Source of the DNA: Desulfatibacillum aliphaticivorans DSM 15576
GTDB taxonomy: Bacteria; Desulfobacterota; Desulfobacteria; Desulfobacterales; Desulfatibacillaceae
DNA length: 32,000 bases
Direction of reading: 5' to 3'
Assembly (NCBI RefSeq): GCF_000429905.1
Contig: NZ_AUCT01000030.1
Location: forward strand, 16,899 to 48,898
The notes beneath the pieces were generated by a model. That model had not been told where the DNA came from. It did not search any database and saw nothing but the letters and a program-made list of their open reading frames with translations. Shown in pieces: positions 160 to 18,996 of the stretch; the first letter of the stretch is position 1; each line of letters opens with the position of its first letter. The position numbers and the translations under genes were made by a program.

Positions 160-375
160 ACTGACGCCCATGTCCGGAGAGAGGGTTTTCATGAAGCATT
201 GCCTGAGCCGCCGGAACCTTTTTGGCTCCATGCCTTCCCTTGGCGGGCAACATTCTTCCTTGGATAAAAAAAACAGATGCAGCGTCACAACCCTCAGGGC
301 GCCATAATAACCTGGACGCCCCCCCCAACCAGGGCGGTCGGGAAAAGCGGACCGCCCCGGCAAGGATGATGAACT
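160..375 (+). repeat. Partial, degenerate copy (locus A) of the ~340-bp structured intergenic repeat family
   Basis: Aligns by eye with units at 5757-6395 and 13928-14981. Shared stretches are GGTTTTCATGAAGCATT-GCCTGAGCCGCCGGAACC, CGTCACAACC, CCATAATAACCTGGACGCCCCCCCCAACCAGGGCGG. The 27-nt H1 hairpin is deleted. The H2 position holds a different 8-bp hairpin (332-339 / 350-357). Confidence 0.6.
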
Positions 376-392
376 TACTAAGTGCGTGCAAC

Positions 393-3300
393 CTACGGCA
401 GCCAGGAATAGGCGCCGTAGGGGTATACATAATCGATGGTCAGGGCGTTTCCGTCGTAGGCTCTCAGGAATATCAACGCATAGAACCCTTCCTGGGTTCT
501 GACAAACTGAATCCGTTTCCCCGCGTCATTATGCACATTCCATGCGATGGTGTACGGAATGCACTCATCAAAAACTTCCTTGGAAACGCACATGGCCTCA
601 AAATCCTCTTGGGACAGCAAATAGTGGCATTCCATGCCGCCGCCGGAAACGAGGCCGAAGAGATTGCATTCCACAAAGGGGTTGTCATTCTGCACCAGAA
701 GGTCAGCCTGGCTGGCGGGATTTACTTCGCCTGTTGAAAAATCCAGGCTTTGGTCGTCAAGCAAAGCGACGGTTCGAATGGGCTCCGGCCTGTCCACGCC
801 CGCCTCGTGATTCATGACAATCAGGGCGTCGGCCAGCCCAAGGCTTCCGTCCCCGTCGCAGTCGCTAAGGGGACCGGGGGTGTATGCTTTGGACGTCCTG
901 GTTGCTATTTGCATGGCTGCGGCCGCATCAGACACGCCCACGGAGCCGTCGCCGTTAACGTCCCCCCATTGGCCGGCGACCAGGGTGATTTTCAAGGCGC
1001 CTGCGCCGTTATCCAGTGTATTCGTTCCGCCGGGCATGGAAAACAGGGCGTAGCCCGGCCCCGTGGTCCATGCGCCATGGGCGTCGGGGGCGCTTTTCAT
1101 AAATTCCGGATGATCGAGAGAGGATGTGCTGAAACACCTTCCGTCTTCCTCGGCGAAGTGAGCGCGTGCAATTTCATCAGTAAAGGCGTCCAGATAGAAG
1201 CGGGGCGCCTCCCCCCAGACAATGAGAATGGCGGTGTAGGCTTTGTCCACGGCCATGGTTTGGGTGGATTTTCCCTTGCCCAACAAGGTCCATCCGTCGC
1301 CCCACGGGACTGCGTCCACCCCGCCTTCCGTGCATTCAGCCGTGCTCCAGGTTGTGCTGCCGTACACCCGGTAGACCTCGCCGTCGGTCCAGATATCGTT
1401 TTCGTCCAACAGGTCGTCCAGATTAATGACAATGCCGGAAACCGTTCCGTCCTGGGTTACGATGGTCTGGCTCAGGGAGTCGCCTTGGATGTCCCCGATA
1501 TTTTTTACGCCGGTTCCGTCCGAATCGTAAATCGCATAAAGATACACGTCCTGGCCGACGGGCAGGCCTTCCAGGGTGTAAGCTCCGGCGCCGTCCACAT
1601 AGGCGCTGGCGAGAAGCGCGGCGGTGGAAAGGTCGTCGCCGGAATAGGCGTAAATGTATATCCTGCCTTCAGCGGATTTTCTTGCGCAATCGTCGCACGT
1701 AATTTCCCCTGTAATAACGCCGTTGGCATCCACGCGGACGTGCGTGTTGTTATCGTCCGAATAGATAGCCGCCCGCAGCGTGGAACCGCTGACGCCTCCG
1801 GAGATATTGTCCAAAACTGCCAGCGGCGCCCGGAATTCAATGAACGAGTCTCCGGCGGCGGCCTCATAAGGTCCGGTCCCGAGGTAACCGAAATACCGGG
1901 AGCAATAGGCGCGCCATGCAATCACTCCCGCGTCATTGTTACGGTCCGCATACAAGCAGGCGGAAACATTTGTGACCGGGTTGATGAAGGCAAGCCTGTA
2001 ATTGTACCCGATGGGACTTCCGTCATAGGTGGTCATGGCGGCGCACAAATTCCCGGCGCCGTCATAGGCAAGGTAGACGTCTTTCAGGTCCGTCCCGGCG
2101 GGGCTGTTTCCATCTCCCGAGGGGTCCGTAAAGACCAACGCGTCCTGGGTCCAATCGCCGGGGTCTCCGTCAATGACAATGGGCAGGGTTGGAATGGTGA
2201 AGTCTCCTCCCGGCTGGAGTTCCAGCAGATTGGTCAAGTCTTCATTGGTGAGCATGTCGCGCAGGATGCCGTTTAAAACCGGGTCTCCGCCAAAACTGCC
2301 TCCAATCAAATCATTGCTGGAATCCCATTTGGGAAGCGAATCCCGAATGTCGAGGGGATCCTTGCCCGTGTTTCCGAATAGCCTGTTCAGGTCAAAAGTC
2401 CGGGTTTCGGAGTCTTGGGAAACGCGGGTCCCCTGGATGACTCCCTGACAGGGCAGCCATTCGCCGCCGCCAAAGGTGTAGGTTCCGGTAAAACTGTCGG
2501 CGGCGACGCTTGTCGCTGCAATTTCCACATAGGGAATTGAGTCGCCGTTGGTCATGATGGGATCAGCGCCGTTCGGGTCAAAGTGATATACGTCGTCATG
2601 ATGCCAGTGGAGGAACATAAAGGGTCTTGTAAAGTTGCCTTCGGGGCTGATCCCTTTGCTCCAGGCAAGCATATACTCGGTCGTACAGGACTTGGTATCG
2701 ACGGCGACATGATATACAACTCCCGCCTCGGCCGTGAAGCTCACCACGGATTCTTCCCACCAGGGATTGTCGCTGGAGACGATTTCCGTCAGGCCGCCCA
2801 CATCTCCGCCCGTGTACACGGCCAAAACAGTCTCGCAATAGTTGTCATATAGGTTAAAAAAATAAACGCCGGCTTCGGGCGCGGTCCAGTTCCACCAGGC
2901 CGAGGCGTTCAGGGTTCCCGCTTGGGCCGGCTCACCCGCCTCGGAGGCAGCGTTGGCGTTATGGCCCCAGGCGGCGCCGGATGTTCCTGAGAGAGTCAGG
3001 GCATCTGCGAAATCGTCATTGGGTGGAGGGTCGTCCATGTCAGCGCCGAATTGACTGATATGGGAATCGCCGGATATCAATACTCCGTCCTGATCCCTTT
3101 CGACTTCCAGGCTAAGCTCCCAGCCCGGCCATTGCCGGGAGTCGGTCAGGGTCCACTTTTCCATGTTTTGGGTGTAGACGAATTCCGTGTTGTCGAGCAG
3201 CGAGTCTTTCAGGTCCTGAATGGCCTTGTCGCCCATTTCCAGCAAGCGTTTATCTTCGTCCGAGCCTATAAAAAGAAATTCGTCGGCCTGATCGTCAACC

Positions 3301-4181
3301 CCGCCTTCGTACTCCGCAAGAATAAAGGCGTGGGCTTCCTGGGCCGCGTTCAAGCCCGCCAGAAATGACGTCTTGGCCCGGGCGAGGATCGCTTCTCCAT
3401 CCGCCGAAACCGCGCCCGCGGGAAGCAACTCCCCAAAATTTTGACAGGCGTCCACCACGTCCCTTTGAAACTGAAAAATTCCGGCGTTGCTGAGGGCAAC
3501 CAAAGCCCGAATGTCCACATCCATATTGTAGGCGGAGGCGATCAGCAGCACGGACTTCATCAGGTTCAGCCCCGCCTTGAAGGCCAGGACGTCTCCATAG
3601 TCCATTTCGCAGCCCAGGCCCGTGGGATCGCCCAATTCATCAGGCGTTAACTCGACCACAAGAGAGGAGTCAATGGCATCCAAGTCCGCCAAGGAAGCGT
3701 CGATCGTTCCCACAAAGGCGTCATGGAGGAAAAGGCGAAGATCCTCCCCGCCTGGGGCGCCGCGGGGCAAAAACACGCCTTCCTCCGTTTCAACGCCGGG
3801 GGACAGGCTGTAGGGAATTTCACCCGCCTCATCCTCGCTGTTGCGATACAGGCCAAAGGCTTCGGCCAAATCATGCAGAGTTTCCAACCCGCTCCCGCTC
3901 CCCTGGTCCAGCAGGAACGACGCCAGCCTGGACCCGCTGAGAAACAGCCGGGCTTCCTGGTTTGTGGAGTCCGCGGCGACGGCAGCCTCGAACTTTTCGT
4001 GAGCCGCCAGAACTTTGGAATACTCCAGGTCTCCCTGATTGAAAAACAGCGCCCGCCCCTCTTCCGTTAAAGCCTGGGAATTCCCGGAAGCTTCGGCCCA
4101 TGCGCAAAAAGGATTCGCCAAAATGAGTAACATAATGAATAAATTGGCTATTGTGTTGCACAAAACTCGATTCTCAATCAT
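393..4181 (-). CDS. Large secreted multidomain protein (1262 aa) with dockerin/EF-hand-like Ca-binding repeats; function unknown
   Basis: Dominant ORF of the region with an ATG start at 4181. The N-terminus looks like a signal peptide (LFIMLLILANPFCAWAEA). Two dockerin-like repeats, GDVNGDGSVGVSD and DCDGDGSLGLAD, are encoded around 800-961. Other modules are NDDFADA..GEPAQAG..WWNWTAP..LAVYTG and a carboxypeptidase-regulatory-like stretch (YTLEGLPVGQDVYLYAIYDSDG). Confidence 0.8.
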   Translation of the reverse strand: MIENRVLCNTIANLFIMLLILANPFCAWAEASGNSQALTEEGRALFFNQGDLEYSKVLAAHEKFEAAVAADSTNQEARLFLSGSRLASFLLDQGSGSGLETLHDLAEAFGLYRNSEDEAGEIPYSLSPGVETEEGVFLPRGAPGGEDLRLFLHDAFVGTIDASLADLDAIDSSLVVELTPDELGDPTGLGCEMDYGDVLAFKAGLNLMKSVLLIASAYNMDVDIRALVALSNAGIFQFQRDVVDACQNFGELLPAGAVSADGEAILARAKTSFLAGLNAAQEAHAFILAEYEGGVDDQADEFLFIGSDEDKRLLEMGDKAIQDLKDSLLDNTEFVYTQNMEKWTLTDSRQWPGWELSLEVERDQDGVLISGDSHISQFGADMDDPPPNDDFADALTLSGTSGAAWGHNANAASEAGEPAQAGTLNASAWWNWTAPEAGVYFFNLYDNYCETVLAVYTGGDVGGLTEIVSSDNPWWEESVVSFTAEAGVVYHVAVDTKSCTTEYMLAWSKGISPEGNFTRPFMFLHWHHDDVYHFDPNGADPIMTNGDSIPYVEIAATSVAADSFTGTYTFGGGEWLPCQGVIQGTRVSQDSETRTFDLNRLFGNTGKDPLDIRDSLPKWDSSNDLIGGSFGGDPVLNGILRDMLTNEDLTNLLELQPGGDFTIPTLPIVIDGDPGDWTQDALVFTDPSGDGNSPAGTDLKDVYLAYDGAGNLCAAMTTYDGSPIGYNYRLAFINPVTNVSACLYADRNNDAGVIAWRAYCSRYFGYLGTGPYEAAAGDSFIEFRAPLAVLDNISGGVSGSTLRAAIYSDDNNTHVRVDANGVITGEITCDDCARKSAEGRIYIYAYSGDDLSTAALLASAYVDGAGAYTLEGLPVGQDVYLYAIYDSDGTGVKNIGDIQGDSLSQTIVTQDGTVSGIVINLDDLLDENDIWTDGEVYRVYGSTTWSTAECTEGGVDAVPWGDGWTLLGKGKSTQTMAVDKAYTAILIVWGEAPRFYLDAFTDEIARAHFAEEDGRCFSTSSLDHPEFMKSAPDAHGAWTTGPGYALFSMPGGTNTLDNGAGALKITLVAGQWGDVNGDGSVGVSDAAAAMQIATRTSKAYTPGPLSDCDGDGSLGLADALIVMNHEAGVDRPEPIRTVALLDDQSLDFSTGEVNPASQADLLVQNDNPFVECNLFGLVSGGGMECHYLLSQEDFEAMCVSKEVFDECIPYTIAWNVHNDAGKRIQFVRTQEGFYALIFLRAYDGNALTIDYVYPYGAYSWLP

Positions 4182-5533: not shown

Positions 5534-5756
5534 GGTTCACCTCTCAGTATTTCAGTTTTGGAACGAAATCTCTGGGATTGAATGCACTCGATTTTTTTCA
5601 AAGGCCGCGGCCGCGCTTCCTGCCTTGCACAGCTAACCGGTTTTGACTGATATGACGAGGGGAAAGGAAAAAAAGTCGACAAAAAAGTTTTCAGAGAATG
5701 TGAGGCCATTTTCTTTGAATGAATAAGCAAATGCGGCTGCATAACCCTACTCCGCA

Positions 5757-6395
5757 CTATGGCGGTAAACTGCACTGCCTGAGCCGCCCGGAACCTTTTG
5801 GGCTGCATCCATCCTCTGTGGTGAACAACAACCTTTCTTGAGTCAAAAAATCAAACACAACTTCAAAGCCGTCATCATTGCATAACCTCCTGGGCGTCCC
5901 CCAACCAGGGTGGCCCAGGCAAGGCTTTTTTTGCCTGGGCGCGCAAGCGCAAAAGGCGCGACCTGGAAAGATAGTCGAAATCAGGCGTGGCAGGCGGGCG
6001 GATGGAAATTTTTGAAGCCCTGCCTTTCCCGGCATTGCCGGTTCAAGAAAAACTTTGGCTTCCATAAGCGTTTCCTCAAGCCTTCTGTGCTTCGCACTCA
6101 GGCAGTAAACTGCACTGCCTGAGCCACCCGGAACCTTTTGGGCTGCATCCATCCTCTGTGGTGAACAACAACCTTTCTTGGGTCAAAAAAATCAAATACA
6201 ACTTCAAAGCCGTCATCATTCCATAACAACCTGGGCGCCCCCCAACCAGGGCGCCCCCCAACCAGGGCGCCCCAGGAAACTCGTTTTCCTGGGCGCGCAT
6301 AGACGCCGTTTTGTGAAGCGGGGGGAGACCATTTCATCGAAGCGCAATAGGCGCGACCGGAGGGGATAATCAAGGTCTGAGTTGACCGGCGGGCG
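5757..6395 (+). repeat. Two head-to-tail units (B1 5757-6096, B2 6097-~6395) of the ~340-bp structured repeat family (locus B)
   Basis: H1 hairpins at 5757-5783 (degenerate) and 6097-6123 (perfect CTCAGGCAGT-N7-ACTGCCTGAG) give a period of 340 nt. H2 hairpins lie at 5914-5939 and 6271-6293. The region sits between two minus-strand genes and has no frame-conserved ORF. Confidence 0.85.
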
Positions 6396-6433
6396 AAGAG
6401 CGTTGTTTAAGGCCCTATTTTCAAACAAGAGTC

Positions 6434-7609
6434 TTAAACGACCTGTTTTCCTCGCACCATGACGCCAACGGGTTGCTGCAGGCTGGCGGGCAGGTCCTGG
6501 GGCGAGCCCTTGACCATAACCAGGGTTGCGGCCTTGCCGGGAGCGAGGGTTCCCAGATCTTTCAGCCCCAACAGGTCAGCGCCGTTACCGGCGGCCGCCT
6601 TGACGACTTCCTCCAGACTAAACCCCGCCTTCATAAACAAAGCCATCTCACGCCATAGGGATCTTCCGTGATGCACGCCGGTGCTGCCTGCATCCGTGCC
6701 CAGGGCCAGGGTGACGCCCAGTTCCCGGGCCTGGGAGATGAGCTCCATCTGGGCTTCCAGGTTTTTCAGGGCGCCGGCCTTTTTCGGGTCGTCGTCCGGG
6801 ATGGATTGGGCGTAGCCTTCCATGGTGACGGCCGTGGGGACCCACACGGTTCCATGTTCGGCCATGCGTTTCAGGTTGTCCCGGCCCATAAAAAAGCCAT
6901 GCTCCACGGACTGGCATCCGGCTTCCACGGCGATACGCACGGGCTCGTCCCCATTGGCGTGGATCATGATTGCCAGGCCCAGCTTCTTTGCCGCCTGCAC
7001 AGCCTGGGATAGTTCCTGCCGGGAAAACTGGGGCGGAGTTTGCTTGCCGAACTCGATCAGGCTGTTGAGTCCCGAGCCCACCACCTTGATGAAATCCGGG
7101 TTTTGGCCGTCTTCGGCGATGGCCCGGGCCAGGGTTTGGCCCTCTTTAGGGAAACGCCCCACCAGCTTGCCGTAGCGTTTGTCCGCCCTCCACGCCTTGC
7201 CCGCGCATTTGGCGATGACCGGAATGTCTGCATCCTCCCTGGCAAAACGAAGGGCGTGGCCGCCCCAATCGCCTCCGTCGCGAATGGAAGTCACGCCGCT
7301 TTTCAAAGATTCCTCAAGGTGTCTTTGGATGACCGGCGCGGATTTTTCGTAGGGAACGAAAAGCTGGGTTTCCCGGATTTCCATGTCCGTGGTTCCAGAC
7401 ATAACCAGATGCACGTGGGCGTCCGTCAGACCCGGCAGGATGGTGCAATCGGAATAGTCCAGGATGGAGGCGGATTGGGCTGTCTCAGGACCGGCGGGCG
7501 CCAGGCTTTTGATCACGCCGTTTTCAATGGTTAAAATAATATTTTCAGCGGCCGGAGCGCTTGTTCCATCGATTATCCAGCCGGCTTTTATTTTTAAAAA
7601 GGAGTTCAT
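6434..7609 (-). CDS. Metal-dependent amidohydrolase family protein
   Basis: ORF of about 391 aa. Motifs include GLTDAHVHL (the HxH metal site), IMIHANGDE and SVEHG, and LGTDAGS near the C-terminus, which together are typical of the amidohydrolase superfamily. The ORF track starts at a TTG (7624). I prefer ATG 7609, which is preceded by GGGAAGAA. Confidence 0.8.
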   Translation of the reverse strand: MNSFLKIKAGWIIDGTSAPAAENIILTIENGVIKSLAPAGPETAQSASILDYSDCTILPGLTDAHVHLVMSGTTDMEIRETQLFVPYEKSAPVIQRHLEESLKSGVTSIRDGGDWGGHALRFAREDADIPVIAKCAGKAWRADKRYGKLVGRFPKEGQTLARAIAEDGQNPDFIKVVGSGLNSLIEFGKQTPPQFSRQELSQAVQAAKKLGLAIMIHANGDEPVRIAVEAGCQSVEHGFFMGRDNLKRMAEHGTVWVPTAVTMEGYAQSIPDDDPKKAGALKNLEAQMELISQARELGVTLALGTDAGSTGVHHGRSLWREMALFMKAGFSLEEVVKAAAGNGADLLGLKDLGTLAPGKAATLVMVKGSPQDLPASLQQPVGVMVRGKQVV

Positions 7610-7927: not shown

Positions 7928-10900
7928 ATGAAGATTTCGCGCAGGGGGTTTTTCAAGACCGCTGGAGCTGGGGCGGCGGCGGGCGTTCTGACCGGAAAGG
8001 CTGACAAGTCTCTTGCGGCCCTGCCGACTCGGGAAGACCCTTTTGCCAATGCGGTTTCCACGACCTCCGTATGCCCTTTCTGCGCCGTGGGCTGCGGCTC
8101 GATCATCAAGGCCCTGGACGGAAAAGTCGTGCAGATCGAAGGAGACCCGGAGCATCCCATCAACCAGGGGGCCTTGTGCTCCAAGGGCCTGGCGTTTTCG
8201 CAAACGGTCAACAGCCCGGGCAGGCTGCAAAAGGTTATGTATCGGGCGCCCGGCAGTGATCATTGGGAGGAGAAATCCTGGGAATGGGCCTTGCCCCGCA
8301 TGGCCGCGCTGATCAAGAAGACGCGGGACGCCTCCTTTGTGCAGGAAAAGGACGGCCGCACGGTCAACCGGACCGAAGGCCTTGCCTGCCTGGGCGGCGC
8401 GGCCCTGGATAATGAGGAGTGCTACCTTTACGCCAAGCTGGCCCGGGCTTTGGGAGTCGTCTACCTGGAGCATCAGGCGCGCATCTGACACAGCGCCACC
8501 GTCGCCAGTCTGGCGGCAACGTTTGGAAGAGGCGCCATGACCAACCATTGGATCGACATGGCCAACGCCGACGTGGTTATGGTCTGCGGCTCCAATGTGG
8601 TGGAAAACCATCCCATAGCCAGCCGGTGGCTGCAAAAAGCCCGGGAGCGAGGGGCCATAATCCTTTCTGTGGATCCCCGATACACCCGAACATCCTCTTT
8701 CGCCGACCATTATTGCCGTCTGCGAAGCGGCACGGACATCGCCTTTGTGGGCGGCATGATCCGCTACGCCCTGGAGCACAACCGAATTCATCGCGAATAC
8801 GTGGTCAACTATACCAACGCTTCGTTTATTATCTCGCCCGACTTTGAATTCCACGAAGGCTTGTTTTCAGGCTACGACCAGGAAGCCCGAAGCTACGACA
8901 AGTCCTCCTGGGCCTACGAATGCGACGCCTCGGGCGCTCCCCTCCGGGACGAAACCCTGACCCATGAACGCTGCGTGTTCCAGTTGCTGAAAAAGCATTT
9001 TGACCGGTACGATCCCCAGACCGTTTGCAGCATCACCGGCGCTCCGCAGGACGCCTACGAAAAGATTTGCGACCTGTACACATCGTCAGGCCAGGCGGGA
9101 AAAGCCGGAACCTGGCTGTACGCCATGGGCGCCACCCAAAGCACCCACGGCGCCCAGAACATCCGCACATACGCCATGCTGCAGCTTTTGCTGGGCAATA
9201 TCGGCGTGGCTGGCGGGGGCGTAAACGCCTTGCGGGGGGAGTCCAACGTTCAGGGCTCCACGGACATGGCTTTGCTCTTCCATATTCTGCCGGGCTACCT
9301 GAAAAACCCCAACGCGTCCGACCAAAGCCTGGAGCAATACCTCAAGCGATGCACGCCCGTCTCAAACGATCCAAAATCCGCCAACTGGTGGGGCAACACC
9401 CCCAAGTACATGGTTTCGCTGCTCAAGGCCTGGTTTGGAGATCACGCAACCCCGGAGAACGATTTCGCCTTTGACTGGCTGCCCAGGCACAGCGTGAACA
9501 GCTCCTATATTCCCTTGTTTGAAGCCATGCATAAGGGAGACGTCCAGGGCCTGATTTTGTTCGGGCAGAACCCGGCTGTCAGCGGCCCCCATGCTGGCAG
9601 GGAGCGGGAAGCGCTTTCCCGGCTGAAATGGATGATCGCCGTGGATCTTTTCGAGACTGAAACCGCCGGGTTCTGGAAGCGGCCGGGCGTGAACGCAAAG
9701 GACATCGACACCGAGGTTTTTCTACTGCCTGCGGCCGCCTCCGTAGAAAAGGAAGGCAGCATCACCAACAGCGGCCGCTGGGCCCAATGGCGGTATAAGG
9801 CAGTCGAGCCGCCCGGGGACGCCCGTCCCGACCTCTGGGTGCTGAATTCCCTGTTTAACGCGGTAAGAAAGGAATACCAGGCCGGCGGAGTCTTCCCGGA
9901 GCCCATTGTGCACTTGAATTGGGATTACGCCTTGGAAGGCGATCCCCACCATGAGCCCGATCCCCACATAGTCGCCAAAGAGGTGAACGGATATTTCACC
10001 CGCGAGACCACGGTCAAGGGCAAAACCTTTGCCAAGGGGGATCAGGTTCCGTCCTTCGCCTATCTGACGGACGACGGCGCCACTTGTTCGGGCAACTGGC
10101 TTTATTGCAACGCCTACACCGGCCCGGAAAAATCAGACAACCGCATGGCCCGCAGGGGAAGGGATGACGCCCCCAGCAACATCGGCCTGTTTCCCGAGTG
10201 GACCTGGTGCTGGCCGGTCAACCGGCGCATTCTATACAACCGGGCCTCCGTGGACCTGGAAGGCAGGCCCTGGAACCCGGAGCGCTTCGTTATCAGATGG
10301 AATCCCGAAGAATCCTCCTGGGAGGGGGACGTCCCGGACGGGGGATGGCCTCCGGGGTCAAAGCATCCCTTTATCATGCAGCCGGACGGCCACGGCCAGC
10401 TTTGGGCCAGATTTTTGGCCGACGGCCCCCTGCCCGAGCATTACGAGCCCTTTGAAAGCCCCATTGTCAACCCCATGTCCCGCAGCCAAAACAACCCGGC
10501 GGTTAAAATCTGGCGCGAAAAGCCGGGCGATAAGAACCCATTCGGAGATCGGGAGAAATTTCCCATCGTGGCCACGACCTATCGCATGACCGAGCATTGG
10601 CTGGGCGGCGCCATGACCCGCAACACGCCCTGGCTGGCGGAGCTGGTTCCCAACGTGTTTGCGGAAATCGGGACAGAGCTTGCGGAAGAGCACGGAATTT
10701 CCAACGGCGATAAAATCATTATAGAGTCGGCCCGGGGCGAAATCGAGGTCTACGCCCTGGTGAGCTCCCGCATTCCCTCCTTCAAGCTGGAAGGCCGCAC
10801 CGTGCATCAGGCGGGGCTGGTCTGGCATTTCGGATACCAGGGGATCGCCAAGGGGGACAGCGCCAACATGCTCACCCCCAACGTGGGCGACGCCAACACC

Positions 10901-10963
10901 ATGATTCCCGAATTCAAAGCCTTTTTATGCCGAATTAAAAAGGCGGAAAGGAGCCCGGCATGA
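7928..10963 (+). CDS. fdhA: Formate dehydrogenase catalytic (alpha) subunit, Mo/W-bis-PGD enzyme, selenocysteine-containing, Tat-exported
   Basis: ORFs 7883-8488 and 8537-10963 are in the same frame and are interrupted only by TGA at 8486-8488. Read-through gives LEHQARI-U-HSATVASLAATFGRGAMTNHW. From memory this is the FdnG/FdhA selenocysteine active-site context. The twin-arginine signal is MKISRRGFFKTAGAGAAAG. The N-terminal Fe-S motif is CPFCAVGCG..C. AGGAG lies 7 nt upstream of ATG 7928. The product is 1011 aa with U at residue 187. Confidence 0.9.
8493..8535 (+). promoter_or_regulatory. Candidate bacterial SECIS stem-loop directing Sec insertion at UGA 8486-8488
   Basis: The apical hairpin is GUCGCCA-GUC-UGGCGGC at 8501-8517. 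Its apex lies about 22 nt 3' of the UGA and the loop contains GU, as I recall for E. coli fdhF/fdnG SECIS. A lower stem pairs GCGCC (8493-8497) with GGCGC (8531-8535). I did not compute a fold. Confidence 0.5.
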
Positions 10964-13124: not shown

Positions 13125-13916
13125 ATGCACCGATTTGACGAAGATATTGCAGTCTCCCCCAAAGAGGGTTCCACATATGCAGCCAAGGTGACGGACAACT
13201 GGTCCATCATGGGCATTCCCAACGGCGGATACCTGATGGCCCTGCTGACCAACGCCATGCTCCAGCAAAGCAAAAACGAAAACATCCTGGTGGTGACCGC
13301 CACCTATCTTTCCAAACTAAAACCCGGACCTGCGGATCTTGTTGTGGAGAACTTCGCATCGTCCCTGAACCTGGACAGGTATCAAACCCGGTTGATCCAG
13401 GACGGCCGGGAATGCATTCGCGCCATGGGAACCTTCCGGCCCTCCAACATGGACCGGAGCGAAGACCGGTGCGAAAAGCAGGCGCCCGAACTGGCGCCCG
13501 TGGAGCAATGCGTCCAGGTCCCGGTCATGCCCAACTTCACCTTGTTTGACAACATGGACGAATACCTGGACCCGGATTCAGCGGGCTGGATGTCGGGCAA
13601 TCTGTCGGACGTCTCAGAGATAAAAGGCTGGATCAAATTCAAGGAGGACCGGCCTTTTGACCATCTGTCCGTGCTGCTTATGGCGGACTCATTTCCTCCT
13701 CCCATCATGGCGACCAAAGGCATGGCCGGATGGGTGCCCACGGTGGAGCTTTCCGTGAACGTGTACGAGATTCCCGCCACCCCATGGCTGAAATGCCGGT
13801 TTCGCACCGACTTCATGAGCCGGGGCTTTTTGCAGGAAGACGGAGAGCTTTGGGACGAAAACGGTACCCTCATCGCCGTCTCCCGCCAAGTGGCCCAATT
13901 CAAACGCGCCAAATAG
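13125..13916 (+). CDS. Acyl-CoA thioesterase-like (TesB/4HBT_3 hot-dog fold family) protein
   Basis: 263-aa ORF with an ATG start. The N-terminal region WSIMGIPNGGYLMALL resembles the thioesterase-like superfamily. This call is from memory of the family pattern only. Confidence 0.6.
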   Translation: MHRFDEDIAVSPKEGSTYAAKVTDNWSIMGIPNGGYLMALLTNAMLQQSKNENILVVTATYLSKLKPGPADLVVENFASSLNLDRYQTRLIQDGRECIRAMGTFRPSNMDRSEDRCEKQAPELAPVEQCVQVPVMPNFTLFDNMDEYLDPDSAGWMSGNLSDVSEIKGWIKFKEDRPFDHLSVLLMADSFPPPIMATKGMAGWVPTVELSVNVYEIPATPWLKCRFRTDFMSRGFLQEDGELWDENGTLIAVSRQVAQFKRAK

Positions 13917-13927
13917 GAATTTATTGT

Positions 13928-14981
13928 GGGCAGCCCAGGTGCATGCCTTCCCTGGGCTGCCCCGAACTATCCGTTTCGGGCTTCAACCATCTGTTTTGGT
14001 GACCAACACTCTTCCTCAGAAAAAAAATCAAACACAACTTCAAAGCCGTCATCATTCCATAACAACCTGTGCGCCCCCCAACCAGGGTGGCCCAGGCAAA
14101 TCTTTTTTTTGCCTGGGCGCGTAAGCGCAAAAGGCGCGACCCGTGGGGATAATCGGATTCTGGTATGGTCGGCGGGCGGTTGGTTTTTCAGGAATCCCAG
14201 CCTCTTTCGGCATTGCCGGTTAAAAAAAAACGAAGGTTTCCATAAGCATTTCCTCAAGCCTTTTGTGCTGCGCACTCAGGCAGTAAACTGCACTGCCTGA
14301 GCCACCCGGAACTTTTTAGGCCGCAATCATCATTTTTGGTGACCAACTATCTTCATTGGATAAAAGGCCAAATATTGGGGCGTCACAACCGTCTTCACAC
14401 CATAACAACCTGGGCGCCCCCCAACCAGGGCGGCCCAGGCAAGGCTTTTTTTGCCTGGGCGCGTAAGCGCAAAAGGCGCGACCAGAGAAAATAATCAAGG
14501 CCTGGCATGGTCGGCGGGCGATCGGATATACATGAAACCGGCCTATTCAGGCGACACTGGTTCAGGAAAAATATTGGTTTCTGTAATCGCTTCCTCACGC
14601 CTTCTGTGCTTTGCACTCAGGCAGTAAACTACACTGCCTGAGCCACCCGAAACCTTTTGGGCTGCAACTATTTGTTTTGGTGACCAACACTCTTCATTAG
14701 ATAAAAAGCCAAATGCGGCGTCACAACCGTCATCACTCCATAACAACCTGTGCGCCCCCCAACCAGGGTGGCCCAGGCAAGGCTTTTTTTGCCTGGGCGC
14801 GTCAGCGCAAAAGGCGCGGCCTGGAAAGATAGTCGAAATCGGGCGTGGCAGGCGGGCGGTTGACTTTGCAGTAATCCCTGCTTTATCGGCCGACAGCAAT
14901 TCAGGAAAGGCACTGGTTTCTGTAATCGCTTCCTCACGCCTTCTGTGCTTTGCACTCAGGCAGTAAACGACACTGCCTGAG
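13928..14981 (+). repeat. Head-to-tail array (locus C) of three ~340-bp structured repeat units (13928-14274, 14275-14615, 14616-14954) closed by a terminal H1 hairpin (14955-14981)
   Basis: Perfect 10-bp-stem hairpins CTCAGGCAGT-N7-ACTGCCTGAG lie at 14275-14301, 14616-14642 and 14955-14981, giving periods of 341 and 339 nt. H2 hairpins CCCAGGCAA(A)-loop-(T)TTGCCTGGG lie at 14091-14117, 14434-14459 and 14772-14797. A conserved core TGGTGACCAAC...CCATAACAACCTGNGCGCCCCCCAACCAGGG is shared. Indels between units break every reading frame. Confidence 0.9.
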
Positions 14982-15043
14982 CCGCCCACTGCTTTTTAGG
15001 CGATACTATTTGCTGCGGAGAGCCTGTCTAAGCAGTTAAGTCA

Positions 15044-15074
15044 GCCGTCCTCGGACGGCTCTCTCCATTTTTTT
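15044..15074 (+). terminator. Candidate intrinsic terminator on the + strand just after the repeat array
   Basis: GCCGTCC (15044-15050) and GGACGGC (15054-15060) form a stem with a tight tcg loop, or a shorter stem with a larger loop. A T7 run follows at 15068-15074. The 7-nt gap between stem and T-run is longer than ideal. Confidence 0.45.
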
Positions 15075-15172
15075 CGCTGCGAGCAAGGGGTTGTATTTTT
15101 AAGCGCTTTGCCGTAAAGCCATTGGACAAAGAGGGGGAGGCAAAACTCACAAAAGCGGGAAGAGGTTCGCCC

Positions 15173-15574
15173 ATGGATTATTGCAAAGGAAAAATAGCCA
15201 AGCTGCTCACGGATTTTTTCGAGGAAGACTTTCGCAGGATCAATCACGCCCTGGAAGTGCTGAAATACGCGGAAAAAGCTATGGGAAAGTACGAAGACGC
15301 GGACGAAGAAATCGTCATCGCCTCGGCCCTGCTGCACGACGTGGGCATCAAGCCCTCAGAGGCCAAACTGGGTTACAACAACGGCAAGACTCAGGAGGAT
15401 TTCGGCCCGCCCGCGGCAAAAGAACTGCTTGGACGCATTGACTTCCCCGCGGATAAAACCCAAAAGGTTTGCGAGATTATCGGCAATCATCATTCCCGGT
15501 CCCGTTACGATTACGTGGAGTTGAAAATCCTGAAGGAAGCGGACCTCATCGTCAACAGGATGGAAGGGGATTGA
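15173..15574 (+). CDS. HD-domain metal-dependent phosphohydrolase (small, single domain)
   Basis: H...HD signature is present (INHALEVLKYAE ... ASALLHDVGIK ... IIGNHHS). The track ORF begins at TTG 15122 with no RBS. ATG 15173 is preceded by GGGAAGAGG, so I prefer it. Confidence 0.7.
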   Translation: MDYCKGKIAKLLTDFFEEDFRRINHALEVLKYAEKAMGKYEDADEEIVIASALLHDVGIKPSEAKLGYNNGKTQEDFGPPAAKELLGRIDFPADKTQKVCEIIGNHHSRSRYDYVELKILKEADLIVNRMEGD

Positions 15575-18577: not shown

Positions 18578-18996
18578 ACGCCGGTTTGACAATGTTGGAT
18601 GAACCTGCGCACGCCCTTTTGGGGCGTCCAAACGGCCTGCACAAGTTCACGCAACCCATCTCTAAAAAAAATGTCTTGCGCAGAACCATCCAACCTACAT
18701 ATCCACCTAATATAATGTGCTTTTCCATGTAGGTCGGGTGGTTCTGCAATAATACTTTTTTTGAAATCCGATTTCATTGCATCTCCTAATATCATGATGT
18801 CAGCCATAGACCTCAAGGCAGGTTCACCCGACGACTCACTTTTTTATGTTCCACTAAAAAAATGAATAATTAGTGGACGAACTTCAAAAAAGGCGGTATT
18901 CCTTTACACAGTTGTATAGCCTTCAAAAAGCCCGAAAGATTAATGTTCCGCCATTGTTCACGTTGTGCAAACCTCAATTTCAACGGGGGGAGTTTA

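Follow-up and report, generated by a model that had tools for sequence, protein, structure and literature searches.

What kind of element is a ~340-bp noncoding repeat that stands in tandem between an acyl-CoA thioesterase gene (13125-13916) and an HD-domain gene (15122-15574) in a stretch of 32,000 nucleotides from Desulfatibacillum aliphaticivorans DSM 15576? An earlier note on this stretch (hereafter the window; exact protein look-ups, e.g., WP_028316125, agree with the species) had set four candidates side by side and chosen none: a multicopy structured noncoding RNA (ncRNA), an element like a repetitive extragenic palindrome (REP) or bacterial interspersed mosaic element (BIME) served by a distant REP-associated tyrosine transposase (RAYT), a satellite resembling a MITE (miniature inverted-repeat transposable element), and an array of recombination sites. 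Here, we propose that the repeat is very probably a BIME-type cluster of REPs in a Desulfatibacillum REP-RAYT system. A seemingly unclassifiable 340-bp "structured" repeat would thereby be resolved into a known element type, and a REP/BIME-RAYT system would be added in a hydrocarbon-degrading sulfate reducer. REPs and BIMEs are a known class of bacterial repeat that is apparently undescribed so far in Desulfatibacillum, a genus of which we found no mention in the literature searched on RAYTs and REP doublets forming hairpins (REPINs).

The window was compared with the corresponding loci of strain AK-01 (CP001322; L125) and Desulfatibacillum alkenivorans DSM 16219 (L127), both reached through the flanking thioesterase, and with the surroundings of two further RAYT genes: the AK-01 paralogue P0021, ~1.15 Mb off (L130), and P0012 in a Desulfatibacillum metagenome-assembled genome (L132).

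One palindrome in two orientations

Tandem Repeats Finder recovered the array, which we call array C, at 13974-14987, with a period of 341, 3.0 copies, 79% matches, and a score of 1205, in agreement with the three head-to-tail units (C0, C1, and C2) described before. The hairpin H1, CTCAGGCAGT-N7-ACTGCCTGAG, has a perfect 10-bp stem exactly where the earlier note had placed it in this array (14275-14301, 14616-14642, and 14955-14981) and again at 6097-6123, with zero mismatches throughout; a degenerate copy with three mismatches lies at 5757-5783, and the five matches to the pattern compare with 0.00 expected (100 shuffles). As also described, each full unit contains a conserved core, two more hairpins (H2 and H3), and a GGCGGGCG box, and the core CCATAACAACCTGNGCGCCCCCCAACCAGGG occurs six times in the window, always on the + strand (starts 266, 5844, 6185, 14021, 14364, and 14702). 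A unit profile made from 13 units and run with nhmmer matched the window only at ~188-431, 5750-6434, and 13920-14989, i.e., at array C and at the two other loci already noted, which we call locus A and array B. All of these matches are on the + strand. That uniform orientation had been read as a sign of an autonomous element; it holds for the composite units, but the argument drawn from it does not, since three loci would agree by chance with a probability of 0.25 and each unit contains its palindrome in both orientations. As had been claimed, the units share no preserved reading frame: insertions and deletions in the linker and in the loop of H2 put them out of phase with one another; the longest repeat open reading frame (ORF), 14543-14989 on the - strand, gave no matches as a protein query, and small peptides on the + strand (e.g., MRRHNRHHSITT...) were rejected because their frames shift between copies.

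When H2 and H3 were read together as their reverse complement, CGCGCCTTTTGCGCTTACGCGC-CCAGGCAA-...-TTGCCTGG-GCCGCCC, they aligned end to end with H1 and its flanks, GCCTTCTGTGCTTTGCAC-TCAGGCAGT-...-ACTGCCTGA-GCCACCC. Since this alignment runs over the whole length, H1, H2, and H3 are not three motifs, as had been supposed, but one REP in two orientations. The REP is a ~44-nt bipartite palindrome with an unpaired head, GGGT[G/A]GC, a 9-10-bp GC-rich main stem-loop, and a 4-bp mini-hairpin (GYGC-N3-4-GCRC or, more broadly, GYSC-loop-GSRC). In array C, the reverse copies (- strand) lie at 14265..14308 (H1 of C1; 76.3 bits with a REP covariance model), 14606..14649 (H1 of C2; 75.0 bits; the minimum free energy fold is the mini-hairpin plus the main hairpin, z = -2.9), and 14945..14988 (the terminal H1, which closes the array; 71.8 bits); the first of them reads on the + strand as the mini-hairpin GTGC-TGC-GCAC, the main stem TCAGGCAGT/ACTGCCTGA, and GCCACCC, the complement of the GGGTGGC head. 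The forward copies (+ strand) are the H2+H3 segments of C0 at 14085..14128 (69.4 bits, on the model's minus strand), with head GGGTGGC, stem CCAGGCAAA/TTTGCCTGG, and mini-hairpin GCGC-GTAA-GCGC; of C1 at 14428..14470 (head GGGCGGC; 67.2 bits); and of C2 at 14766..14808 (head GGGTGGC; 65.9 bits).

The identity of the REP is established by this alignment, as is its covariation by a set of 19 copies from three genomes. In the two-helix pairing, 93.7% of cells were paired versus 80.8% in column shuffles (0/500 shuffles reached the observed value), and double-change cells in the stems numbered 29 versus 8.2 in shuffles; with partners slid by 1-3 columns as a register control, 18-46% were paired. 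Compensatory changes affect both the mini-hairpin (GTGC/GCAC to GTCC/GGAC or GCGC/GCGC) and the main stem (CCAGG/CCTGG to CCGGG/CCCGG or CCTGG/CCAGG), and single stem positions show pair types such as CG/UA/AU and AU/GC/UA. The head motif is equally clear. A GT[A/G]G head next to a GC-rich palindrome is the tag of classical, or GTAG-type, REPs (PMC2817692; PMC3733652), and the copies described here, which begin with GGGT[G/A]GC, carry that head: GTGG is found in 6/10 window REPs and GCGG in 4/10, and the L130 copies have GTAG in 5/5.

The REP covariance model, R1, was run over ~100 kb of Desulfatibacillum sequence. In the window it gave eleven matches, all within the three-locus family, all extragenic (between annotated or Pfam-supported genes), and strictly alternating in strand, with starts at 5723, 6074, 13910, 14252, 14593, and 14932 on the model's + strand and 5891, 6248, 14068, 14411, and 14749 on its - strand; in array C, the start-to-start spacing is about 158-184 nt. 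One of these matches concerns the perfect 12-bp hairpin H0 (13928..13962), which starts 12 nt past the thioesterase stop codon in the place of the first H1 and had been called unrelated to it. The hairpin is indeed there, but it is related: it scores 34.5 bits (+) and 32.1 bits (-) with R1, aligns with H1 through CCTGGGCTGCCC against GCCTGAGCCACCC, and shows a head-like GGGCAGC/GCTGCCC on its two sides (a GCAG head). In DSM 16219, it carries a compensatory A-T to G-C change. H0 is a symmetric REP-like variant.

Between the REPs lie two spacers. S1 joins two REP heads (14309..14427, + strand, with equivalents at 13963-14084, 14650-14765, 5791-5907, 6131-6264, and about 213-333); in unit alignments it is ~120-135 nt long and conserved, and it contains GGAAC, TGGTGACCAAC, an A-run, and the C-rich core. 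S2 joins two REP tails (14471..14605, + strand, ~135 nt in the unit alignment, with equivalents at 14129-14264, 14809-14944, and 5951-6086 and a truncated one at 6359-6397) and contains GATAATC, the GGCGGGCG box, a variable linker, and TTCCTCA-GCCTTCTGTGC. A 340-bp unit is thus REP (reverse, H1)-S1-REP (forward, H2+H3)-S2, joined head to tail to the next, and the whole of array C (13928..14988, + strand) reads H0-S1-REPfwd-S2-REPrev-S1-REPfwd-S2-REPrev-S1-REPfwd-S2-REPrev, as delimited by Tandem Repeats Finder, nhmmer, and covariance-model matches on alternating strands. This inverted-pair architecture is directly observed, and an alternation of REP, S1, inverted REP, and S2, repeated head to tail, is what the published definition of a BIME describes. 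In the same source, the modules of a BIME are "connected head-to-tail," incorporation of a rayt gene into a BIME is described, and there are rayt genes whose downstream REP belongs to a BIME (PMC2817692).

Could each unit instead be a structured small RNA (sRNA) gene, its C-rich core loop serving as an anti-Shine-Dalgarno seed and H1/H2 as a terminator or protective hairpin, in a multicopy locus comparable to NsiR1 or CcsR1-4? Each unit is noncoding and lies between genes, most window copies have a CCCCCC run flanked by CCTGG and CCAGG, and several hairpin variants pair through G-T on the + strand where the - strand has A-C mismatches. However, S1 was no more stably folded than its shuffles, whether read on the + strand (z = -0.8 and -1.1) or on the - strand (z = +0.4 and +1.35), and RNAalifold on whole units, run for both strands, found covariation only in the REP stems, with a covariation term of about zero; that covariation is explained by REPs on both strands. 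No hairpin is followed by a T-run, and promoter- and terminator-like signals across 13500-15400 were not above the shuffled background. In several copies from AK-01 and DSM 16219, changes (CATGG, CCAAGG, and GTCCCACAG) disrupt the C-run and the CCTGG/CCAGG pairing. Rfam returned nothing at the gathering threshold in the whole window and, at E <= 10 over 13800-15200, a single 13.5-bit chance match to a family whose gathering score is 120, which accords with the earlier statement that the family was not a recognized one. We therefore consider an sRNA locus, and with it the long "structured" unit or multicopy ncRNA of the earlier note, very unlikely. The mutually exclusive pairings that had been proposed around H2 follow from the two inverted palindrome copies together with the CCTGG/CCAGG segment.

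Two other readings of motifs within the unit were discarded. A sigma-54 or extracytoplasmic function (ECF)-type promoter for TGGTGACCAAC and GGAAC-N16-TC, assessed by eye, lacks the -12 GC, and the spacing varies between copies. No covariation supports a long-range pairing between the C-run and the GGCGGGCG box, and DSM 16219 alters both without compensation.

RAYT genes beside the REP

Homologues of this REP stand beside RAYT genes, and the association is demonstrated in related genomes of the genus, outside the window itself. The AK-01 array orthologous to array C encloses a 159-aa Y1_Tnp gene, which we call RAYT-2. Its product scored 113 bits with NCBIfam NF047646, used as the RAYT test (cut-off 80 bits), and 27 bits with the IS200 model (cut-off 55 bits), and on these scores it is classed as a RAYT and not an IS200 transposase. 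P0021 and P0012 are 60-65% identical homologues of RAYT-2, on which alone NF047646 was run. Their genes both occupy 10001-10525 of the respective loci. REPs surround them at L130 9600-9670(-), 9787-9860(+), 10522-10595(+), 10655-10725(-), and 10842-10915(+) and at L132 9899-9971(-) and 10522-10592(+), and the unit profile and the REP covariance model gave 56-71 bits on these flanks, on both strands. The unit profile matches there through its H1 part only; S1 and S2 are absent. The likeness extends to the loop: the reverse complement of L130 9600-9670 reads GTCCTTCGGAC-CCAGGCAGC-AAACTAC-GCTGCCTGG-GCTACCC, and H1 reads GTGCTTTGCAC-TCAGGCAGT-AAACTAC-ACTGCCTGA-GCCACCC. The earlier candidate of a REP/BIME-like element with a distant RAYT is thus the one borne out, by inverted REP copies, by homologues that flank RAYT genes, and by the RAYT inside the AK-01 array.

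At L130 9600-10920, AK-01 has three REPtrons in tandem, each a forward REP, a RAYT gene or its remnant, and a reverse REP. The middle one holds an intact 174-aa RAYT; each of the outer two holds, between inverted REPs, a promoter and ribosome-binding site region followed by the first ~10-13 RAYT codons (MTAGDSYKRTHNE... and MAPTESRRWIHDK...). The outer REPtrons look like snapshots of RAYT deletion that would leave REP doublets behind. Their geometry is the same as that of H2-S2-H1, and it is the S2 slot that RAYT-2 occupies in the AK-01 array, together with an HSDR_N gene. A precedent for the REPtron was reportedly described by Ton-Hoang et al. in 2012.

Pfam and tblastn with the RAYTs found no transposase gene in the window, and Pfam found no integrase or cas gene, as had been stated before. 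The lack of an integrase speaks against the recombination-site array, and eye inspection, the only check made, showed no paired integron attC core sites (RYYYAAC...GTTRRRY on either side of an imperfect palindrome of 57-141 nt, in arrays whose cassettes mostly contain ORFs). Mobilization by an IS-type transposase, with the unit as a nonautonomous element of the IS200/IS605 type (a palindrome-associated transposable element, PATE) or as a classical MITE, might be suggested by the hairpin-forming ends, the absence of coding capacity, the Y1-family enzyme nearby in AK-01, and the shared strand of the composite units. Yet the Y1 protein is the RAYT just described, the hairpins are inverted, not direct, and carry the GT[A/G]G head, and the orientation bias involves three loci (p = 0.25). 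The array ends show no target-site duplication by eye, and no empty site fixes the boundaries, so that the MITE-like candidate of the earlier note was not upheld either. IS200/IS605 elements and PATEs do share with the REP system an HUH/Y1 enzyme, hairpin recognition on single-stranded DNA, and no evident target-site duplication; they differ in that the enzyme here is of the RAYT clade, the hairpins are inverted, and a transposase gene is seen between the ends in just one unit, that of AK-01. Movement of the unit by an IS-type enzyme is in our judgment extremely improbable, and an IS200/IS605 element or PATE was rejected on the IS200 score (27 bits < 55) and the inverted hairpins.

Array turnover and the nearest known systems

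From strain to strain, the arrays differ in their number of units and in their cargo. The window strain has three units with no genes between them. In AK-01, the order is H0, three units, the HSDR_N gene, the 159-aa RAYT gene, one unit, a second thioesterase gene (thioesterase-2), and a degenerate unit; DSM 16219 has a single unit, followed by thioesterase-2 and then by part of a unit. In AK-01 as in DSM 16219, the thioesterase genes form a tandem pair with 73% identity, and thioesterase-2 sits in the S2 slot in AK-01; the window strain has evidently lost it from between the units, as the gene order suggests. Unit C0 matches its AK-01 orthologue at 98% identity; C1 and C2 are at most about 80% identical to any AK-01 unit, and part of C2 is nearest to unit B1 of array B, 8 kb off (86% over 170 nt). 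At locus A, the flanks are ~99% identical to those in AK-01 and S1 is much more diverged. Array B has its own changes: a 16-bp x2.9 micro-tandem (CAACCAGGGCGCCCCC) at 6227-6273 in unit B2 repeats the end of the core, and a 41-nt insertion (6299-6339) splits the mini-hairpin of its last REP. The AK-01 orthologue of array B has one unit and neither the insertion nor the micro-tandem, which makes both recent and strain-specific. Unit number, the mosaic of identities, the diverged S1, and the changes in B2 are compatible with units that often recombine unequally and undergo gene conversion with one another. The three-strain comparison points to the clusters as drivers of local genome change, with unit number varying, a thioesterase paralogue lost, and foreign genes trapped.

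The same data bear on a simpler account, in which the thioesterase and its downstream terminator region were duplicated locally in tandem, with no transposase, and the units are the leftovers. The tandem paralogues in AK-01 and DSM 16219 are each followed by a REP-like hairpin or a unit, and the window strain has apparently lost the second gene between units. Copies at loci A and B, however, lie beside unrelated genes on the other strand, and the REP module, there lacking S1 and S2, recurs beside RAYT genes in another Desulfatibacillum genome and, 1.15 Mb off, in AK-01; recombination explains the dynamics of the arrays, not their dispersal. Local duplication is decidedly unlikely as the origin of the family.

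For a REP-RAYT system, a course of events can be drawn from RAYT-REP work (PMC2817692, PMC3116915, PMC3479197, PMC5581495). The REPs would fold as hairpins in single-stranded DNA, and the RAYT, an HUH/Y1 enzyme, would recognize these hairpins, cut and rejoin the DNA at or near the head, and so seed REP doublets at new intergenic sites. The segment forward REP-S2-reverse REP would correspond to the REPtron geometry, with the RAYT gene between inverted REPs whose heads point outward. With at least two units in place, unequal homologous recombination and gene conversion would grow, shrink, and reshuffle the arrays and, by the same process, delete or trap adjacent genes. REP hairpins may also stabilize the upstream mRNA or aid termination, an effect suggested by the position of the clusters at gene 3' ends.

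Strain by strain, the same REP-bounded slot is empty, filled with the RAYT and HSDR_N genes, or filled with a thioesterase paralogue that has its own promoter. A variant of the proposal would make forward REP-S2-reverse REP a cargo-carrying REPtron derivative; alternatively, S1 would carry a host function (a regulatory site or small RNA) co-amplified with the REPs. We rate this variant, in either form, as unlikely. To our knowledge, RAYT-REP systems are currently thought to move REPINs only; if it were true that a RAYT moves REP-bounded cassettes in trans, such systems would mobilize or duplicate host genes.

A BIME-type cluster finds its closest counterparts in the BIMEs of Escherichia coli (BIME-2, with alternating Y and Z2 REPs) and of Stenotrophomonas and Xanthomonas (Nunvar et al. 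2010, PMC2817692). In those as here, two dimorphic REPs alternate, with two segments per module and head-to-tail repeats; the elements are extragenic and lie at gene 3' ends, and a rayt gene, here in a sister strain, has a downstream REP that is a BIME component. In contrast to these BIMEs, the module here is 340 bp, its long spacers (~120-135 nt) show conservation from locus to locus, the REP has an extra 4-bp tail mini-hairpin, copy number appears low, S2 can hold whole genes in related strains, and the host, instead of being a gammaproteobacterium, is a sulfate-reducing member of the Thermodesulfobacteriota. Inter-REP motifs of E. coli BIME-1 and BIME-2 bind integration host factor (IHF) or gyrase; the A-run of S1 followed by TCAAA bears, by eye, only a partial likeness to WATCAANNNNTTR. 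An inverted REP doublet that is repeated and a cognate RAYT flanked by the same REPs are likewise features of REPINs and REPtrons (Bertels & Rainey 2011, PMC3116915), but a REPIN doublet has a short spacer and can fold into a single long hairpin, whereas here the spacers are long and S1 shows no complementarity to S2. The mobile doublet may be the head-to-head pair that spans S1 or the tail-to-tail pair that spans S2. The GTAG-tagged REP superfamily (Di Nocera et al. 2013, PMC3733652) offers the same unpaired GT[A/G]G head, 9-10-bp stem, 5-8-nt loop, head-to-head and tail-to-tail dimers, and tyrosine transposase association; here, unlike there, the head lies within GGGT[G/A]GC, GCGG or GCAG replaces the tag in roughly one copy out of three, and a second small hairpin follows the main stem. 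The unusual features of the Desulfatibacillum family are therefore its bipartite REP, its long conserved spacers, and its gene-holding S2 slot.

Several observations weigh against a REP-RAYT system and account for our reserve. S1 and S2 are long (~120-135 nt each) and conserved between loci; the linkers of E. coli BIMEs are shorter. The family may be low in copy number compared with classical REPs, which have >100 copies: in the ~100 kb examined, REPs were found only in these arrays and beside RAYT genes. Repeats that flank group 1 and 4 RAYTs are of low abundance (PMC5581495).

The link to RAYT-2 also has its weak side. The HSDR_N/RAYT segment of AK-01 (L125 11850-13700, orthologous to about 14190-14950 of the window) has 42-45% GC versus about 55%. 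Its HSDR_N gene, adjoining the RAYT, comprises the N-terminal domain of a type I restriction R subunit only, and the unit upstream of the segment is truncated and joined to a second, degenerate GGCGGACGG box. RAYT-2 may have arrived with this low-GC foreign segment as a chance neighbor; it has a cognate REP on its downstream side only and looks about 15 residues shorter at the N terminus than its paralogues. In the window, tblastn with the RAYTs found no RAYT remnants, and the strain's own RAYT was not seen. We infer RAYT catalysis on these REPs, the extent of the mobile segment, and any host function from likeness to known systems. Finally, the core pattern CCTGNNCGNCCCCCN{0,3}AACCAGGG gave 51 + 72 single matches in genome and metagenome contig collections, all of them chance matches by blastn against the units; AK-01 was not returned despite its exact matches (e.g., L125 10940-10962), so these negatives say little.

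For annotation, the arrays are of practical concern, since they break short-read assemblies (both ends of a short-read Logan contig from the same strain fall in repeats); they are better masked as REP/BIME sequence than called as ORFs or ncRNAs.

Other loci and neighboring features

Array B (5747..6397, + strand), between a 105-aa gene and an amidohydrolase gene that are both on the - strand, comprises two units according to the covariance model and nhmmer: a degenerate REPrev at 5747-5790, a REPfwd at 5908-5950, a REPrev at 6087-6130, and a REPfwd at 6265-6358. Locus A (195..365, + strand; 138.7 bits with nhmmer) is a solitary decayed copy downstream of a 1262-aa gene (393-4181, - strand) and retains the 3' arm of H1, GCCGCC, S1, and GGGCGG, followed by a different hairpin.

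Downstream of array C, a long hairpin at 15020-15078 on the + strand, GGAGAGCC...AGCCGTCC-TCG-GACGGCT-CTCTCC followed by ATTTTTTT, separates the last REP from the HD gene. It was missed by a simple terminator scan and looks like a Rho-independent terminator that would close the thioesterase/array region. In AK-01, a DDE_Tnp_1 (IS4-like) transposase gene (L125 17926-19041) stands between ABC-F ATPase and Na/Ca exchanger genes; neither the window nor DSM 16219 has it.

Away from the arrays, the formate dehydrogenase alpha gene (about 7930-10963, + strand) has an in-frame stop at 8486-8488 (EHQARI*HSATVASL). The gene is divided into 186 aa + 808 aa in some gene calls, and the AK-01 annotation gives a single 1011-aa product. 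The stop looks like a selenocysteine codon; Rfam returned no selenocysteine insertion sequence (SECIS).

Palindromes of the form CCTAC...GTAGG occur in the window at 392-421 (CCTACGGCAGCCAGGAATAGGCGCCGTAGG) and 18694-18733 and in AK-01 at L125 20484-20523. The first of them adjoins locus A and overlaps the 1262-aa gene at its stop codon. None flank RAYT-2, for which they might have been the REP. A motif CCTAC(N)19TAGGT is 97% intergenic in AK-01 (PMC5217627), and the CCTAC...GTAGG palindromes may be a second, GTAG-type REP family of this genome.

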